The position numbers and the translations under genes are program-made. A DNA stretch of 64,000 nt from Candidatus Cloacimonadales bacterium (lineage in GTDB: Bacteria > Cloacimonadota > Cloacimonadia > Cloacimonadales > JAFGVF01), in the NCBI GenBank assembly GCA_963677495.2, contig CAXXOU010000004.1:1-64000 (forward strand). Reading direction: 5' to 3'. The notes under the pieces were generated by a model, which saw nothing but the letters and a program-made list of their open reading frames with translations, was not told where the DNA came from and ran no database searches. This document shows positions 418 to 59,197 of this stretch, piece by piece. Numbering within the stretch: the first letter of the stretch is position 1; every line of letters starts with the position of its first letter.

Positions 418-900
418 CATACACAGTGCAATTTGCAATAGCTTACCGCATTTCAGGGAGTTTGTCGGCCTGATAAGGCAACGGACTTCCTAAAATGCAC
501 TTCGAAGTCGCAAATCCCTGTTTTCGTTCTCGCCCCACACTTCGCTGCAACGCAAGTCCGAATGTGATATACACAGTGTCATTTTCAATAACTTACATCA
601 TTGGAGTCATAGCGACCGAAGGGAGTTGGACTCATAGTGATGTACTTTCACCATTTTCGCTATTCACCCATCTCCCTTCGGTCGCTATTGCGACAGCTAC
701 TGAAATCTCTACACAGTGCTTTTACCAATAACTTAGCTATATTTATTGCCCTTTTAACTCTCTTTTACTGCTCTATCCGGCAACGCACTGCGTCTGCACT
801 GTGCACGCACTGTGAAGGCACTGCTAACCCACTGTTTCACTGGGTGCACAGTGCGTGCACAGTGGGAAAACAGTGGGATGACTGCGTTTTGTTAAAGAGT
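418..900. repeat. Modular composite intergenic repeat, copy 1 (copy 2 at ~42512-43130)
   Basis: Long near-identical blocks shared with 42512-43130, e.g. CTTACCGCATTTCAGGGAGTTTG, CGCTATTCACCCATCTCCCTTCGGTCGCTATTGCGACAGCT and the CACTG array. Confidence 0.9.
772..899. repeat. 11-bp-phased inverted array, core CACTG
   Basis: CACTG at 786, 797, 808, 819, 830; inverted CAGTG at 849, 860, 871. Confidence 0.9.
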
Positions 901-1055
901 TTATTGAAAGTTTGCGATATCGAAAAAGATTTGTAGAAGCTCGGGTACTTGTGATGGAAGCCCGAGGTTGGGTGATATTATAATTTAATAAGGAAACTCT
1001 TGACCGCATTTGCTTTTTATCTATAAATTTGTACATAAAAGTTATGAGGAGCATT

Positions 1056-10041: not shown

Positions 10042-10217
10042 TAGTAATCCTCCTTAGTGTGATGCTCAAATGTTAGGAATCGGTTAAGTTTTGTAAAGAA
10101 ATATTTAATAACTTACGAATTTATGTCACAAGATATATTGCTTTTAACTAAATCTATCTGGATGAGAACCTTAAGTGAGAACCTTAAGGGTTTAGATTGC
10201 TTGGACGCTTCTTCGCA

Positions 10218-10345
10218 CCCTTTCAATTCACGGGAAACACACGGGACTCTCCCGGGAATCTCTCGGGACTCACTCGGGACTATGCCCGAGTGAGTCTCTT
10301 TTAATTCCCGTTTGAAGCCGGAACAAATCCCGAGTATTGAATTGG
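10218..10345. repeat. 11-bp-phased inverted array, core CGGGA
   Basis: CGGGA at 10231, 10242, 10253, 10264, 10275; TCCCG-like inverted cores at 10284, 10295, 10306, 10317, 10328; TTCAA/TTGAA flanks. Confidence 0.9.
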
Positions 10346-21664: not shown

Positions 21665-21734
21665 ATCTCCTCCCTTTCGTAGGTATTTCTTTGCCTGACA
21701 AAACTTTTAAGCCGTTTTTTCGTCAAGGGAAATT

Positions 21735-21791
21735 GGGGGAGGGGAGGGAGTTCGAATAACCACCAGATGAATCTGGTGGTTCTGGGAAGCA
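21735..21791. repeat. Truncated REPIN-like unit (right half)
   Basis: GGGGAGGGGAGGGAG followed by ACCACCAGATGAATCTGGTGGTTCTGGGAAGCA. Confidence 0.8.
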
Positions 21792-21936
21792 TTTTCTCCG
21801 TGCGTATGGTTTCTTAAGAATTTAGTACTATCGTAATAGGAGGTATCAAAAGATAGTGATTGATACTACCTTATGGAACTCTTAATAGGTGTAAAGTGGT
21901 TGAAGAGCTTTCAGTGATGTATTACTGTGTATGTAG

Positions 21937-22084
21937 TGTTCCCCAGAACCCCTACTTTAAAGTAGGGGCATGAAATCTTACAAAAGAAACAGTCCCCTCC
22001 CCCCGATTCTCTCGAATCGGGGGGAGGGGAGAAAGTAGGAGGTGGCACCTAGCCACTAGATGAATCTGGTGGTTCCGGGGAGCA
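21937..22084. repeat. REPIN-like three-hairpin unit 3' of tnpA
   Basis: TGTTCCCCAGAACC...GGTTCCGGGGAGCA termini; hairpins CCCCTACTT/AAGTAGGGG, CCCCTCCCCCCGATTC/GAATCGGGGGGAGGGG, CCACTAGAT/ATCTGGTGG. Confidence 0.9.
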
Positions 22085-22108
22085 ATTGCTATTGACAATA
22101 ATATAGTT

Positions 22109-22543
22109 CTATTTCGTATTCAGTAGATGTTGAAATCTATCCATCTCTTCTTGATAGCTTTTTTTTGCATGGTGTTGCTTCTGATTCTTTATATAGTTTG
22201 CTACTTTAGATAAATTACTCTCAGAGACAGAAAAGAGTGCATAACCTCTACTCCATAGGAACTTAGCATCGAAGATACTACTCTTATTTATTGTATGTGA
22301 TGAAGTCCCTTTCAATTTGTGCATCAAGCCCTCTACTGAAAGGTTTGCGGGAAGAGACACTAACATATGAACATGGTCTGAATTAACGTATATTGACTCA
22401 ACATAAATCTTGTTTTCACGACAAATATCTTCTAAGATTTGTTTGCATTGTAATGCTTTCTCTTCATTCTCAAAATATGGGTACCTTTCTTTAGTTCCCC
22501 ATATAATATGAAACCAGCAACTGTATAATGAGTGTTTAGTCAT
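22109..22543 (-). mobile_element. tnpA: IS200/IS605-family HUH (Y1) transposase, RAYT/TnpA-REP-like
   Basis: HIIWGTKER, DHVH (HUH), KGTSS, WSRGY, YIKNQKQHH (catalytic Tyr). Confidence 0.9.
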
Positions 22544-22703
22544 AGAAACCTCTAAAGCCATAATGATGAAGAGATTGTTAATGTCCAGAGAATTGATTTA
22601 CTAAGTATTTGGAATGTCAATGGAAGTAATCGAAACTATTTTTTGTGATTAACAACAGGTATTGTCGTGGTCCAAGAGTATTAGGTTTGTATTATTGAGG
22701 TAA

Positions 22704-22852
22704 TGTTCCCCAGAACCCCTACTTTTAAGTAGGGGCTGTGATACTACCGAACTCCTTCCCCCTCCCGATTCTCTGAATCGGGAGGGGGAAGGAGTAAAAA
22801 AGCTTTATGTGGTCTTCAGCCACCAGATAAATCTGGTGGTTCTGGGGAATGC
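22704..22852. repeat. REPIN-like three-hairpin unit 5' of tnpA (a)
   Basis: Same termini and hairpins as 21937-22084. Confidence 0.9.
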
Positions 22853-22992
22853 ATTCTAACTTCTAATAATCTCCAAAGAAATTGAGAAATATTGGATAGA
22901 AGGTATTTATTTAGAGTAATTGAAATACCTTACTTGGTTGCATACCAGAAAAGAAGTGGTCCAAGTGCATTAGGTTTGTATGATTGAGGTAA

Positions 22993-23144
22993 TGTTCCCC
23001 GGAACCCCTACTTTCAAGTAGGGGCTGTGATACTCCCGAAATCCCTCCCCCTCCCGATTCTTTTAATGAATCGGGAGGGGGAGGGAGTAAAAAAGCTCTA
23101 TGTGGTCTTCAGCCACCAGATAAATCTGGTGGTTCTAGGGAGCA
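22993..23144. repeat. REPIN-like three-hairpin unit 5' of tnpA (b), tandem copy 289 bp after (a)
   Basis: Unit plus ~37-bp left flank (GTGGTCCAAG at 22667 and 22956) duplicated. Confidence 0.9.
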
Positions 23145-23266
23145 TATTCTTCACACGTAAGATCATTATAGATATTTAAAGAATTTGGACACCGAAAAAC
23201 ATCTATATCTTATCTTTGATAAGATACTAATACAACGATTTACAACATCATCATCCTCTCTACGCT

Positions 23267-23394
23267 CCCATTCAACACACGGGACTTGCTCGGGAATCTC
23301 CCGGGACTCACTCGGGAATCACTCGGGGCTTTGTCCGAGAAATTCGCGAGAAAATCCCATCCAAATCGCGTAAAGGTCCCGAGGGTTGAATGGG
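23267..23394. repeat. 11-bp-phased inverted array, core CGGGA
   Basis: CGGGA/G at 23280, 23291, 23302, 23313, 23324; inverted cores at 23333, 23344, 23355, 23366, 23377; terminal inverted repeat CCCATTCAAC/GTTGAATGGG. Confidence 0.9.
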
Positions 23395-23770
23395 GACACA
23401 AGGGGTGCAGAATAATTGGGATGTTTTCGATAAAAATGCAGAATTTTGCAAGAAAATAGTATTTGAAGTACAGAAATTGGATTTGGATGACAATTGAATA
23501 GTAGAGAGGGATAAAAAAAGCTATAAGCTACAGGCTACAGTTAATAGTTAAAGTCTTTAAAAAAACTGCAGGGAGCGTAACTAAAAGGGCTAATTAGTAA
23601 GGAATAGGATAATAGATGATAGCTAAAAGACTATAGCCTAAAGCTACAATATCAGCAAAAATATACCAGAAATCTCAAAACCGTAAGCTACGTATAATAG
23701 AGGGGCAGATAAAATGCTAGATTATTAATGCTAAATGCTAAATACAAAATACCCCAATAAGGAGATCACA

Positions 23771-24223
23771 ATGAAGATTAAGTACATGAAAGGCTTTAAG
23801 GCCTTTAGCGGAAAGATGGACGAGTTAGTCTATTGCGTTGAGAAATCGTCAGGAGCTGTTTGGGCACGAGAGTATGTCTTACCCAGACTCACAGAGAACA
23901 ATCGAAACATGGGTCTAAGATCCTCGAACCTTTCACGCTTCTACCTGTCAGTAAGCCCCGGATATAAACAGGATTTGGAGGACTACAGTGATAGATTGAA
24001 TCTACTAACGGTCGGGACGGGGCATAGATGCAATGCATCAGCACTTGTGAATAAAATCATGTATGCGTTGAAACGAAAACTACCGGAGTTGGATTTAACG
24101 ACAATCACACCCACGCAAGTTATGCAGATAGGATTACCTGTACGAACAGTAAGAGAAGCTGTTGAAGCTGGCTTGATACCGATTGTTCCTCGATATGATG
24201 AGTTGGAGAATTTGATAATTTAA
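23771..24223 (+). CDS. Uncharacterised 150-aa protein, paralog of 58745-59197
   Basis: AAGGAG RBS before ATG 23771; gap-free alignment with 58745-59197 (65/150 identical by hand count). Confidence 0.85.
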   Translation: MKIKYMKGFKAFSGKMDELVYCVEKSSGAVWAREYVLPRLTENNRNMGLRSSNLSRFYLSVSPGYKQDLEDYSDRLNLLTVGTGHRCNASALVNKIMYALKRKLPELDLTTITPTQVMQIGLPVRTVREAVEAGLIPIVPRYDELENLII

Positions 24224-24230
24224 AAAGAGC

Positions 24231-24259
24231 TTGACACTGATAATTTTAGATTCTACATT
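24231..24259 (+). promoter_or_regulatory. sigma70-type promoter for the TonB-like gene
   Basis: TTGACA-N17-TACATT. Confidence 0.6.
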
Positions 24260-24287
24260 AGAATTGGATTATTTATAATCGAAGGGA

Positions 24288-24983
24288 GTGCTTATGAAAG
24301 TTTTAATAATTATATTATTAACCACATTGCTTTGCGTGTTTAACTTAAATAGTTATGTTAGGGGCTTTCATTACCCAGATGATCCTCCGGAATGTATAGA
24401 ATCTGGAGAACCTGAATATACTAAAGCAGGCGCGCTAGCTTTGATTGAAGGAAGTGTTCTTGTTGAGGTTCAAGTCTTGGCTAGTGGGGAAATAGGGGAA
24501 ATTAATGTAATTGAACCTTTAGATAATAATGTGTATGGTTTAGATCAAGCAGCAGTTAAGGCTGCTAGAAAATTCAAGTTCAAACCTGCTAAATCATCAG
24601 GACGAGTTGTTGATTGTAGGGTGCAATTCCCAATATCTTTTTACTTAAGAGAATCAAGAGCAGTGCCAATTAGTACTGTTGAACCAAAATATAGTAAAAA
24701 AGCTTTGAAAAGCGGTTTGAAAGGAGATGTTGAAGTCAAGTTTGAAGTATTTAAAACAGGGGAGATTGGGGAAGTTATAATCACACAATCACTTGATGAA
24801 AATAAGTATGGTATTCATAAAAGTATTATTGATGCTATAAAACAATATAAGTACAAACCGAAAACTATAGAGGGATATCCAGTAGATAGTTGGGTAGAAA
24901 AATCATTTAGATTCTTTTCTGTGAAACCAGTGAAATCAAAACAACGTAGAAAGTACAATGTTCCAACTATCCGTAAATTATAG
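24288..24983 (+). CDS. TonB-family protein with two tandem TonB C-terminal domains
   Basis: Repeats PEYTKA..EGSV.V.V...G..LDQAA..A..F.FKPA and PKYSKKA..GDV.V.F...G..A..Y.YKP. Confidence 0.8.
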   Translation: MLMKVLIIILLTTLLCVFNLNSYVRGFHYPDDPPECIESGEPEYTKAGALALIEGSVLVEVQVLASGEIGEINVIEPLDNNVYGLDQAAVKAARKFKFKPAKSSGRVVDCRVQFPISFYLRESRAVPISTVEPKYSKKALKSGLKGDVEVKFEVFKTGEIGEVIITQSLDENKYGIHKSIIDAIKQYKYKPKTIEGYPVDSWVEKSFRFFSVKPVKSKQRRKYNVPTIRKL

Positions 24984-25065
24984 TTCATTTTATTCCATTT
25001 AAAGCATTGTTCTAATGCCATCACCTAAAGATTTAATTCATAATTCTGACAAACTTCTTGATAAT

Positions 25066-25092
25066 AAAAAAGCCCTGTGTTTACAGGGCTTT
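25066..25092. terminator. Intrinsic terminator
   Basis: AAAGCCCTGT-gttt-ACAGGGCTTT. Confidence 0.75.
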
Positions 25093-25109
25093 ATATGTGA
25101 TATTGATAT

Positions 25110-29792: not shown

Positions 29793-30142
29793 CTTACATA
29801 CCTCCAAAGATATTTTGATTTGTTTATAGTTTAGACGAGTCTAACAAATTCCCCAATAAAAAATTTTTGCTTAGAAATATTCGCATCACTATTAATGGTT
29901 TAGAGGATAGGTGGTATGGCTGTTTACATAGCAATAATAAAGCCTTCATCTGGCTGTTTTTTTACTTAAATGTTTCAATAATATTTCCTTCTGCACTCCT
30001 GTTACCAATCATTTCCCACAAAAGGTTTCAGCAATTTATTCTCTTTCTATTCTCCACATCCAGCATTCAACATTTAGCATTTTGCATTTTGCATTTATTT
30101 AGCATTTTTCTACTACAAGTCTGGTATGTCCGGCATCAAAAA

Positions 30143-30227
30143 CCTAGAATCTCGCTAGTTCCACCCTTTAGCCTCCCTAGACCCTCCCTATGAAGTGCTA
30201 AAGTTATCCACATCGTGTGCATAACTT
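30143..30227. repeat. 11-bp-phased array (core CCTA) abutting an inverted DnaA-box pair
   Basis: CCTA-like at 30143, 30154, 30165, 30176, 30187; AAG-TTATCCACA-tcg-TGTGCATAA-CTT at 30201-30227. Confidence 0.7.
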
Positions 30228-30360
30228 ATTTAACGGTGCAAGAAGGTTCTTGATGCGATTAGATAAAGAGAAGGTATTGAATAAGTAAGATATTATACCT
30301 TTTCAATGGTCCTTAGACCTTGAAAATGGTACTCTTGTAATGTGGCATTAACATCTTCGA

Positions 30361-42511: not shown

Positions 42512-43130
42512 GACTTACCGCATTTCAGGGAGTTTGCCGGACTGATAAGGAGAGCGGACTTCCTAAAATGCACTTCGAAGGAATCAGGCTTAGGTTTTCG
42601 TCATCGCCCCACACTTCGCTGCGGCCTGTCGGGGCGTAGCTTATAAGCGAAGATTGGTGCAAGTTAGAAAAGTATATACAGTCTCAGAAGCAGTCACCAG
42701 TGCGAGTTTACGAGCTTGGGGATATGTGGAAAAGATATGTTATCCGGTTACGCATTTCCCCGAACTCCCGCTAGTCGTAATGGTGACTGCTTCAGAATAC
42801 ATACACAGTGCAATTAGCAATGACTTACAACATTGGAGTCATAGTGAGTTTACGAGTTGGACTCATAGTGCTGTACCTTTGCCATTTTTCGCTATTCACC
42901 CATCTCCCTTCGGTCGCTATTGCGACAGCTTCAGAAAGATATACTCAGTGGCTTTTGCAATAACTTAGCTACACTTAATGCCCTTTTTACTCTCTTTTAC
43001 TGCTCTATCCATCAACGCACTGTGTCTGCACTGTGCACGCACTGTGAAGGCACTGCCAACCCACTGTTTCACTGGGTATACAGTGCGTGCACAGTGGGAA
43101 CACAGTGGGATGACTGCGTTTTGATAGAGA
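42512..43130. repeat. Modular composite intergenic repeat, copy 2, with inserted REP doublet and CACTG 11-bp array
   Basis: Matches 441-899; CACTG at 43018, 43029, 43040, 43051, 43062 and CAGTG at 43081, 43092, 43103. Confidence 0.9.
42687..42794. repeat. Inverted doublet of family-2 REP-like elements
   Basis: GAAGCAGTCACCA...GGGGA and TTCCCC...TGGTGACTGCTTC; absent from copy 1 of the composite repeat. Confidence 0.8.
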
Positions 43131-43297
43131 CTTATAAGAAAGTGAGAAACAAATTACTTTATAGAGAAAGAAAAGTTTGGTTTAGTAAAGCTAGAGCTAA
43201 AAAATAACATGATGCTATAGAACCGAATAATCTGAAAGGATTAGGTTTAGAGCTTGAAGTCGGATATAGATAATTTAACTAACCTAAAAGAGTCTGA

Positions 43298-58264: not shown

Positions 58265-58350
58265 AAGTTATCCACAACTTGTGACTAACTTGCTGCTTAG
58301 AGTAAGAGAGAAGTAAGTGTCAAGTAAGTGTGGAGTAAGAGTGTAGTAGG
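58265..58350. repeat. Inverted DnaA-box-like pair abutting an 11-bp-phased array (core AGTAAG)
   Basis: AAG-TTATCCACA-act-TGTGACTAA-CTT at 58265-58291; AGTAAG at 58301, 58312, 58323, 58334 and AGTAGG at 58345. Confidence 0.8.
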
Positions 58351-58431
58351 AATTGATTGGGTGTGATTCATCAGACCAGTGAGTTTTAGCAATTGTAACT
58401 CTTCATTCCCCCGATTTTCACTGGAGTAACA

Positions 58432-58516
58432 ATTACATAATCCCTATAAGTATCCTATATGACCCTTATATGAAACCTATATGAACATATAGGAATCTTA
58501 TCTGTTGGATATGGGA
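58432..58516. repeat. 11-bp-phased inverted array, core CCTATA
   Basis: TA(C/T)A at 58434, 58445, 58456, 58467, 58478; inverted TATAGG/TATCTG/TATGGG at 58488, 58499, 58510. Confidence 0.75.
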
Positions 58517-58744: not shown

Positions 58745-59197
58745 ATGAGACTGAGCTTATTACCCTTAATCACAGGCTTATCAGGCAGACTAGGCAAGCT
58801 TGTATTTTGTATCGAAAAGAAGTCCGGTGCCTGCTGGACAAGATTGTATGTAAAACCTGAGATAACTGAACACAACCATGAAATCGGTAGTGCTGCGAAG
58901 AACCTTAGTACTATCTATCATCAAGTAAATGAAGGTTACATGGATGATTTGAAAGATTATGTCGACCGCTTCAACTTGGAGTATCTTGAACACAAAGGTT
59001 ATATGAAGACTTTCCCCTGCTTCATGAAGATGATGTATGCGATGAAACGAAAGCACCCATCCGTGAACCTTAAGACTCTTACGATAGATCAAATCATGTC
59101 GGAAGACCTACCGGTTCGTTCAATCAGAGAAGCAGTAGAGCATGAACTACTCCCGGTTGTGAAACGGTATCAGGAGTTGAATGTCTCGATTGTGTGA
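58745..59197 (+). CDS. Uncharacterised 150-aa protein, paralog of 23771-24223
   Basis: AGGAGG RBS; shared SG...LV.C.EK.SGA.W.R.YV.P, GY..DL.DY, MYA.KRK.P, LPVR..REAVE motifs. Confidence 0.85.
   Translation: MRLSLLPLITGLSGRLGKLVFCIEKKSGACWTRLYVKPEITEHNHEIGSAAKNLSTIYHQVNEGYMDDLKDYVDRFNLEYLEHKGYMKTFPCFMKMMYAMKRKHPSVNLKTLTIDQIMSEDLPVRSIREAVEHELLPVVKRYQELNVSIV

Follow-up and report, generated by a model that had tools for sequence, protein, structure and literature searches.

What is a row of short DNA words, repeated at exact 11-bp intervals, doing upstream of a gene that belongs to no described family? The question arises in a 64,000-nt stretch of a Candidatus Cloacimonadales genome (the window; C4:1–64000 of a 3.41-Mb genome in 4 contigs, labelled G000), where an array of CGGGA cores precedes a gene, p1, for a 150-aa protein. 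An initial annotation had proposed that seven intergenic arrays in the window and the family of this protein, including a second member, p2, at 58 kb, belong together. Comparison within the genome and with its relatives upholds this association, with the arrays carried by one subfamily of the protein only, here called A-type. The explanation that we favour, and hold to be somewhat probable, is a lineage-specific system of two parts: dispersed arrays bounded by terminal inverted repeats (TIRs), and cognate A-type proteins that would bind them.

Phased arrays form a genome-wide class of dispersed elements

All seven sites were inspected in the sequence and their cores were then located by script. 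The geometry that the initial annotation had given to each of them, five cores at 11-bp steps, holds for the sites beginning at 786, 10231, 23280, 43018 and 58301. The CCTATA array also exists, with only four direct cores and a start at 58443, about 9 bp away from the position first noted (58434), and the CCTA site is weak. The focal element, a member of the CGGGA family, carries CGGG(A) cores at 23280, 23291, 23302, 23313 and 23324, followed by an apical turn (CGGGGCTTTGTCCGAG) and a degenerate inverted arm. Its TIR is present as first described (CCCATTCAAC/GTTGAATGGG), and the distance to p1, estimated as ~380 bp, measures ~376 bp between the end of the element at ~23395 and the ATG at 23771.

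The spacing of 11 bp is specific and greatly exceeds what chance would give. In the window, a lag-11 autocorrelation of at least 26/44 is reached by 6 clusters, compared with a single cluster at lag 12 and none at lags 10 and 13. Across the genome, exact 5-mers repeated four times give 143 clusters at period 11 and none at periods 8, 10, 12, 13, 15 and 16, with 1 at period 9, 19 at period 7 and 9 at period 14. The genome-wide periodicity scan that the initial annotation had proposed gives, at a threshold of 28/44, 239 clusters at lag 11 versus 2 at lag 10, 1 at lag 13, 20 at lag 12 and 43 at lag 7. Period 7, with 19 clusters in the 5-mer count and 43 in the lag count, is the second periodic class of this genome; short TGCTAAA-type runs with a 7-bp unit lie near arrays at ~23716–23745 and ~30075–30110 of the window.

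Although 83–86% of the DNA is called coding, 229 of the 239 array centres fall outside crude open reading frame (ORF) calls. The arrays are found in both orientations with respect to the genes beside them, with a preference for intergenic regions between divergent genes; in co-directional intergenic regions the counts on the two strands (20 versus 11 for CACTG, 7 versus 8 for CCAAG and 3 versus 6 for GGTGAC) show no strand bias. At a threshold of 27/44, 266 arrays group into 35 similarity clusters, ten of which have at least 5 members. These are the families CACTG (67 copies), CCAAG (39), CCACG (26), GGTGAC (24), GGGAGG/CCTA (cluster 4; 22), CGGGA (19), CGTTAG (18), the sister families ATCAAG and AGTAAG (cluster 7; 12 together), CATATAG (cluster 8; 5) and CCACCAAGG (5).

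Rather than being a few operators, the arrays are the inner parts of ~240 TIR-bounded elements dispersed through the genome. Each element measures ~130–200 bp, and its conserved inner part has four to six direct repeats, behind which a weaker row in inverted orientation is often present. Alignment of the 19 CGGGA copies defines elements of ~150–165 bp with a TIR of ~16–28 bp, and the 24 GGTGAC copies define elements of ~190 bp, whose TIR measures ~35 bp and whose interior contains a TTATCCACA-N3-TGTGGATAA palindrome. In the CGGGA family, column identity is mostly 0.7–0.9 in the direct-repeat arm and 0.3–0.6 in the middle of the opposite arm. The elements are thus dispersed and resemble miniature inverted-repeat transposable elements (MITEs), and the part under selection is the phased row of direct repeats. 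About 1% of the genome and many of its ‘promoter regions’ consist of these elements, which matters for annotation.

Could the elements instead act as RNA, as small RNAs or terminator-like hairpins, with the period of 11 arising from stem-loop design? The palindromic layout does give them hairpin potential. In the consensus fold of the CGGGA family, pairing involves the TIRs, the apical turn and the outermost cores; 93% of cells are paired, and most of the 26 that have changed on both sides fall in the TIRs. Some CACTG copies also have a short run of T at their end. The CGGGA fold leaves the three middle repeats unpaired. Because the direct arm is conserved and the opposite arm is not, reading as duplex DNA fits better than a full hairpin, and an exact 11-bp direct period with position-specific linkers would be unnecessary for a hairpin. 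The occurrence of the elements in both orientations relative to neighbouring genes also speaks against an RNA role, as do the lack of any Rfam family matching an array and of any terminator-like site in 22560–24300. Altogether we regard an RNA function as highly improbable. A sponge RNA of the CsrA/Rsm type, binding through GGA, was dropped as a candidate because the cores differ between families.

Two further features of the elements were observed. In the CCAAG and CGGGA families, the sequence of a linker depends on its position in the row and is conserved from one copy to the next: in CCAAG, unit 1 resembles unit 5 and unit 2 resembles unit 4, and in CGGGA an alternation of GGGAC and GGGAA creates a 22-bp super-period. 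This pattern points to a defined complex more than to a uniform filament. The word TTATCCACA, which we take to be the DnaA-box consensus, occurs 154 times in the genome against ~41 expected. Palindrome-like TTATCCACA-N3-TGTGGATAA sites lie within 200 bp of an array in 41 of 52 cases and are a fixed module of the GGTGAC, GGGAGG, ATCAAG/AGTAAG and CCACCAAGG families; in the window, the word occurs at ~30203–30232 and ~58268–58292.

Arrays accompany A-type paralogs

The genome contains 22 intact paralogs of the 150-aa protein plus two fragments. Their alignment separates 15 A-type members (p1, p2, L001, L003, L004, L005, L007, L008, L009, L010, L012, L015, L016, L017 and L019) from 7 B-type members (L002, L006, L011, L013, L014, L018 and L020). 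Several lines of evidence connect the arrays with the A-type genes.

First, arrays in related genomes lie upstream of members of the family. We examined 39 loci with 41 paralog ORFs and 2 kb on either side (~174 kb) from G001, G013, G014, G025 and G026. Of the 18 arrays scoring at least 28/44 in these loci, 17 are situated between −52 and −389 relative to a paralog ATG and the other at +9, leaving none in the rest of the sequence; the same loci yield no arrays at lag 10 or 13. As background, intergenic regions of at least 250 bp were taken from random 400-kb samples, and 34 of 227 (15%) have an array: 12 of 82 in G013, 9 of 83 in G014 and 13 of 62 in G001. Upstream regions of paralogs have one in 17 of 41 cases (P = 3.1 × 10⁻⁴), and in G013 alone in 7 of 10, versus 12 of 82 (P = 4.6 × 10⁻⁴). 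The enrichment upstream of homologs for which the initial annotation had proposed a test is found in the five other genomes, while a length-controlled test within G000 does not detect it (see below).

Second, the array families sampled in G013 are those that stand beside its paralogs. There, each of six core families lies upstream of a different paralog: GAAACAGG at L058, TACGGTA at L061, CTAGATGA at L060, CTAAAG... at L053, GCGGT at L059 and TTAGG at L057. All 16 arrays in a random 400 kb of G013 fit, by reading, one of these six families, and the chance that seven random draws would cover all six is 0.015. In G009, 6 of 8 arrays belong, by reading, to a CTATTAG family, a degenerate copy of which lies at about −188 to −150 of one of the two paralogs.

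Third, array density follows paralog number. Among seven genomes sampled over 400 kb each, we counted 26 arrays in G000 (24 matches to the protein family, genome-wide), 16 in G013 (12 matches), 15 in G001 (13), 9 in G014 (9), 8 in G009 (2) and none in G024 and G022, neither of which has a match.

Fourth, cores are kept or changed along with the protein. Orthologs in G000 and G001 retain the same array family in all three pairs that are at least 80% identical: L009/L036 (80%), L019/L037 (94%) and L016/L041 (91%). In more diverged pairs the cores differ: AGTAAG versus TTGCATAA for p2/L040 (69% identical) and CCACGG versus CCAACG for L008/L039 (60%), and they are altered in L017/L042 (47%). Over 32 paralog–array pairs, the 11-bp units become more alike as protein identity increases: their similarity is 0.57 where the proteins are less than 35% identical and 0.77 from 80% upwards (Spearman r = 0.16, reached in 29 of 2,000 permutations), in support of the co-variation of core and protein that the initial annotation had suggested testing. 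A private core for each paralog is supported by these orthologs and by G013; for p1 and CGGGA it is unproven.

Fifth, the association within G000 divides the two subfamilies. An array of at least 27/44 lies within 1 kb upstream of 12 of 15 A-type genes, or 13 of 15 when an array of 25/44 at L007 is counted, and of 1 of 7 B-type genes (Fisher’s test on 13/15 and 1/7, P = 0.0023). The 14 gene-adjacent arrays represent 11 families, compared with an average of 7.9 in random draws (P = 0.028).

Finally, an array and a gene have been duplicated jointly. L004 and L005 are recent duplicates that have an 823-bp unit in common, at 97% identity, between unrelated flanks. The unit runs from a complete GGTGAC element through ~250 bp and the gene to 6 bp past the stop codon, so the two can move or duplicate together; the gene itself lies outside the TIRs of the element.

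Evidence that weighs against the pairing

A simpler account is that the arrays are selfish MITE-like or REP-like (repetitive extragenic palindromic) repeats that accumulate in long intergenic DNA and have no functional link to the 150-aa genes. Several observations weigh in its favour and against a two-part system. Within G000, 12 of 22 paralogs have an array upstream, compared with ~8.9 expected after control for length, which is not significant; arrays lie upstream of 36–48% of any genes with 450–1,100 bp of upstream intergenic DNA, so adjacency within this genome is not significant by itself. Two large families, GGGAGG (22 copies) and CGTTAG (18 copies), have no gene-adjacent copy in G000, two A-type genes, L001 and L003, have no array, and identity within families does not separate those with a gene-adjacent copy from those without. 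Orientation and distance also vary between orthologs (L016 has its array, of the CACTG family, at −898, L041 at −292 in the opposite orientation), so the geometry is not that of a fixed operator. A conserved promoter-like box in G013 follows the array at one locus and precedes it at two, and the lack of strand bias relative to flanking genes speaks for selfish repeats.

The focal pair is the weakest. Orthologs of p1 with more than 50% identity are absent from G001, G002 and G003, and the CGGGA element occurs in at least 20 places in G001 and ~25 in G003. The link between p1 and CGGGA is unproven because these genomes carry the element without such an ortholog. An intergenic region of the length found upstream of p1 has a chance of about one half of containing an array, so that the focal array could be a chance neighbour. 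When positions 21700–25100 are compared with G001–G003, the CGGGA element is the only part common at the DNA level, and an empty-site comparison with these congeners likewise matches the element alone, the flanks being too diverged.

Three more points count on the same side. The statistics overstate independence, because the genomes compared are relatives. In the distant clade of ~181-aa homologs in G027, arrays are found at 3 of 20 loci, one of them T-rich and of low complexity, and the attempt to extend the pairing to this clade failed. Lastly, no DNA-binding fold or domain was detected in the 150-aa family; there are only sub-threshold matches, to AbiEi_4 (E = 0.0081, on a C-terminal fragment, in 2 of 20 members) and to a Cox-like PHROG (E = 0.26).

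What tips the balance between the two accounts is the comparison across genomes. Accumulation in intergenic DNA accounts for G000 alone and not for the others, where 17 of 18 arrays in the paralog loci of five genomes lie no more than 389 bp upstream against a background of 15%, where G013 has one family per paralog, where orthologs keep their array family and where both sampled genomes that lack the protein (G024 and G022) also lack arrays. The duplication of array and gene as one cassette argues in the same direction. We therefore judge purely selfish repeats to be unlikely, and retain the two-part system as the favoured explanation.

Some features of the paralog loci stand beside these results. 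Instead of arrays, tandem repeats of ~100 bp are found upstream of L001 (C1:523005+) and L003 (C1:781894−). The promoter-like box upstream of paralogs reads CTCCCTC ... CTCCCTCCTATATATATATGAAGG in G013 (L055, L059 and L061) and TTGACC ... CTATATAT in G009 (L197 and L199), and its position relative to the arrays is variable. The ~20 copies of the G027 clade are very uniform in length (181–183 aa); at one of its loci (L205, C2:1434988–1438392), seven or eight tandem repeats of 76 bp and a gene for a Y1 transposase come after the 181-aa homolog.

A protein family without a known fold

The 150-aa family is undescribed, occurs mostly in Cloacimonadota and has no Pfam, PDB or fold match. No family in Pfam, NCBIfam or PHROG matches it, and PADLOC gives none except a weak match of L016 to a 2TM effector (E = 0.003). 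A word-based homolog search returned the query itself only. A profile search over 1.84 billion representatives found 366 clusters at E ≤ 0.001 and 237 at E ≤ 10⁻¹⁰; among the 150 clusters listed, lengths are mostly ~140–170 aa, and the nearest Atlas clusters are unnamed and mostly from Candidatus Cloacimonadota. Within the order, 22 of 31 genomes, counting G000, have a match; beyond the genomes sampled for array density, G021 has 19 and G027 has 24.

The fold search suggested by the initial annotation turned up no relative. The AlphaFold2 model of p1 is confident (pLDDT, the predicted local distance difference test, 86) and has three short strands followed by five helices. Searched as a whole, it found nothing in the PDB (Foldseek, best E = 0.74), in a wide structure search (best Z = 4.0) or in the viral library BFVD (best E = 0.16), and a profile search of the PDB found no relative (best E = 0.18). 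Ribbon-helix-helix chains reach Z = 3.1–3.7 at best, over residues ~45–107 of the model. By eye, the C-terminal 47 residues resemble a helix-turn-helix; a separate model of them (pLDDT 72) gave no match with Z ≥ 2 and Foldseek E values above 8. A homodimer prediction scored 0.17, relative to a mark of 0.42, and speaks neither for nor against self-association.

The two subfamilies vary differently. B-type proteins have a C-terminal 50 residues with 0.85–0.97 column identity and variable N termini, and A-type proteins vary evenly along their length, at 0.5–0.6 (alignment of 22 paralogs). From this pattern, the B-type copies would share one target, or none.

Five divergent pairs of an A-type and a B-type gene in G000 enclose slots of 4.5–8 kb (C1:774912/781894, C3:291430/297242, C4:777582/782563, C4:1465701/1474267 and C4:1498361/1503618). 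The slots contain DNA methylases, AAA/SMC-like ATPases, an Mrr_cat+CTD6 (ABC-3C) protein and a PIN protein, as well as a histidine kinase, a response regulator and a protein with a type IX secretion system (T9SS) tail. None of the 14 slot proteins scanned is an integrase; the paralog loci were not searched systematically for one.

Comparison with known systems

To our knowledge, bacterial genomes rarely tolerate hundreds of repeats, and we know of only one well-understood repeat population that is tied to a cognate gene, that of REPIN elements and RAYT (REP-associated tyrosine transposase) genes. The REPINs of Pseudomonas and Enterobacteria are reported to be short palindromic, non-coding intergenic elements whose families are tied to a cognate gene (PMC3116915, PMC3337134, bioRxiv 10.1101/2022.05.22.493013). 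The two systems resemble each other in having dispersed intergenic families, a cognate gene with an adjacent copy of its family, persistence in lineages and several families per genome. A gene beside its own repeat family is found here too, the exceptions being the two families without a gene and CGGGA without p1 in the congeners. Unlike in REPIN–RAYT, the 150-aa protein has no Y1/HUH domain or known fold, Y1 genes are not tied to arrays, the element consists of 4–6 phased direct 11-bp repeats with a degenerate opposite arm rather than a pair of REP hairpins, the array is only upstream of the gene, and ten or more families coexist. REPIN–RAYT is the nearest analogue at the level of the system; its Y1 transposase and REP hairpin have no counterpart here.

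The resemblance raises the possibility that the arrays are simply of REP/REPIN type and are mobilized by IS200-like Y1 (RAYT) transposases, with the 150-aa protein a bystander. The elements are indeed imperfect palindromes with TIRs, the genome has 14 Y1_Tnp matches, and one such gene (PF01797, E = 6 × 10⁻³⁰; window 22109–22561, minus strand) lies ~700 bp from the p1 array, divergent from p1. A random expectation of 0.23 is nonetheless enough to explain the 4 of 14 Y1 genes that have an 11-bp array within 1.5 kb, and the 5 arrays near those four genes come from four families. The conservation of the direct arm without that of its pairing partner is unlike a hairpin recognized as single-stranded DNA, and a comparison of coordinates in G027 places 1 of 6 Y1 genes beside a homolog. 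Since Y1 genes are not enriched near arrays, we rejected a RAYT link and consider mobilization of this kind very unlikely. PF01797 matches none of 61 members of the 150-aa family examined, and p1 and p2 have no Pfam match at all. Two Y1 genes lie within ~1.2 kb of a 150-aa paralog, near p1 and L003, and GC-rich hairpins occupy ~22990–23090, between the Y1 gene and p1.

For the geometry of the arrays, the closest precedent is parC of the type II partition system of plasmid R1, with two sets of five 11-bp iterons that bind ParR cooperatively, at about one dimer per iteron, and also serve as operators (PMC2241845). The elements with cores from 10231, 23280 and 58301 have the same five cores at exactly 11 bp. 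However, parC is found once, on a plasmid, next to the motor gene for ParM, and both of its sets are direct and flank a promoter. The arrays of G000 number in the hundreds and are chromosomal, their second arm is degenerate and inverted, they lack a motor gene, and the search for a ribbon-helix-helix family detected none. Could gene and array nevertheless form a chromosomal ParR/parC-like centromere module, serving segregation or nucleoid organization? The shared geometry and a small gene with an array upstream would fit. Copies numbering ~240 on the chromosome and falling into many families would not, and neither would the neighbourhood of the paralogs, none of which has a motor gene beside it: p1 is followed by a gene with TonB_C domains, and the duplicated cassette ends 6 bp past the stop codon. 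With no ParR-type family or fold beyond the ribbon-helix-helix scores given above, a centromere module seems to us extremely improbable.

Recombination directionality factors offer a second precedent on the DNA side only. Apl and other such factors are reported to bind direct repeats one helical turn apart (PMC7498355), and Cox of phage P2 and Apl of phage 186 are small oligomerizing proteins that act as repressor and architectural factor (PMC7498355, PMC3936717, PMC11963761). Those proteins are ~90 aa long, have a winged helix and act together with an integrase on an attachment site, whereas the 150-aa family has sub-threshold winged-helix matches only.

Like MITEs, the elements are short, non-coding, bounded by TIRs and present in many dispersed copies that fall into families. 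Unlike MITEs, their inner phased array is the best-conserved part, and no parent element carrying a transposase within matching TIRs turned up, although no search was aimed at one. The edges of the CGGGA and GGTGAC elements are too fuzzy in the alignments for target-site duplications to be called.

A proposed mechanism and its implications

In the two-part system that we favour, an A-type paralog would have a copy of its own repeat family a few hundred base pairs upstream and would read the core word of that family. We propose cooperative binding on a single DNA face, with one protein unit to each turn of the helix, because of the comparative pattern and of the known systems with the same geometry (ParR/parC and Apl/Cox). 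The gene-proximal copy would then be an autoregulatory operator, and the dispersed copies would offer additional sites that spread or persist in dependence on the protein, much as REPIN populations depend on a RAYT gene. More tentatively, and rather less probably, this may be a new kind of partnership: a protein of new fold with a readable DNA code, in a dozen or more paralogs, each sustaining a private population of mini-elements. In its detail, every paralog might read its own 4–8-bp word five times on one helix face; in its scale, a 3.4-Mb genome might hold up to ~240 such mini-elements.

If the protein also promotes copying, the system would be a second counterpart of REPIN–RAYT, mechanistically unrelated to the first. 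If pairing means binding, dozens of natural pairs would be available from which to learn how the protein reads DNA, and the arrays could serve as handles on regulation or genome architecture within Cloacimonadota; if the partnership is real, its many natural protein–word pairs could reveal a new programmable DNA-binding scaffold. A protein in which neither domain nor fold can be recognised here appears to be matched, family by family, to centromere-like or operator-like repeats in a phylum known almost only from metagenomes. Searching for Cloacimonadota, Cloacimonetes and Cloacimonas, we found no paper on such repeats, although papers outside the searched library may exist.

The focal locus and other sites in the window

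The array elements and paralogs of the window are listed in Table 1.

Table 1. Array elements and 150-aa paralogs in the 64-kb window
Feature	Position	Strand	Remarks
CACTG-family element	772..901	+	No paralog nearby; one of 67 copies
CGGGA-family element	10212..10340	+	~400 bp upstream of 16S rRNA gene
CGGGA-family element (focal)	23255..23414	+	TIR, five direct CGGG(A) cores, apical turn, degenerate inverted arm; one of 19 genome copies
p1, 150-aa A-type paralog	23771..24223	+	In-frame ATG further upstream at 23735 would make 162 aa
Degenerate GGGAGG/CCTA-family copy	30143..30232	+	Followed by TTATCCACA box; family assigned by eye
CACTG-family element, second copy	43000..43145	+	No paralog nearby
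AGTAAG-family array	58276..58371	+	Five AGTA[AG]G cores, 58301–58345; cluster 7
CCTATA/CATATAG-family array	58427..58497	+	Cluster 8, 5 copies
p2, 150-aa A-type paralog	58745..59197	+	43.3% identical to p1

Between 22560 and 24300, a sigma-70 promoter scan gave 5 sites against 5.4 expected, none of them between the array and the ATG of p1. Four sequencing runs, all from one sample and one study, contain the focal stretch as contigs, and no RNA run is listed.

At the p2 locus, the 43% identity noted for the paralog is confirmed, and the gene starts ~250 bp past the CCTATA array. This array has four direct C[CT]TATA cores, 58443–58476, and one inverted TATAGG at 58488, and a TTATCCACA half-palindrome at ~58270 immediately precedes the neighbouring AGTAAG array. 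At the weak CCTA site, CCTA occurs at 30143, 30176 and 30187 only, and the lag-11 score stays below 26/44. The first CACTG element has cores at 786, 797, 808, 819 and 830 (plus 838) and inverted CAGTG at 849, 860 and 871; the second repeats this layout, with cores at 43018–43062 (plus 43070) and then 43081–43103. The CGGGA element near the 16S rRNA gene has its five cores, 11 bp apart, at 10231–10275. A near-identical copy with the same flanks lies at C2:80984 of the genome, a locus that we provisionally take to be another rRNA operon.

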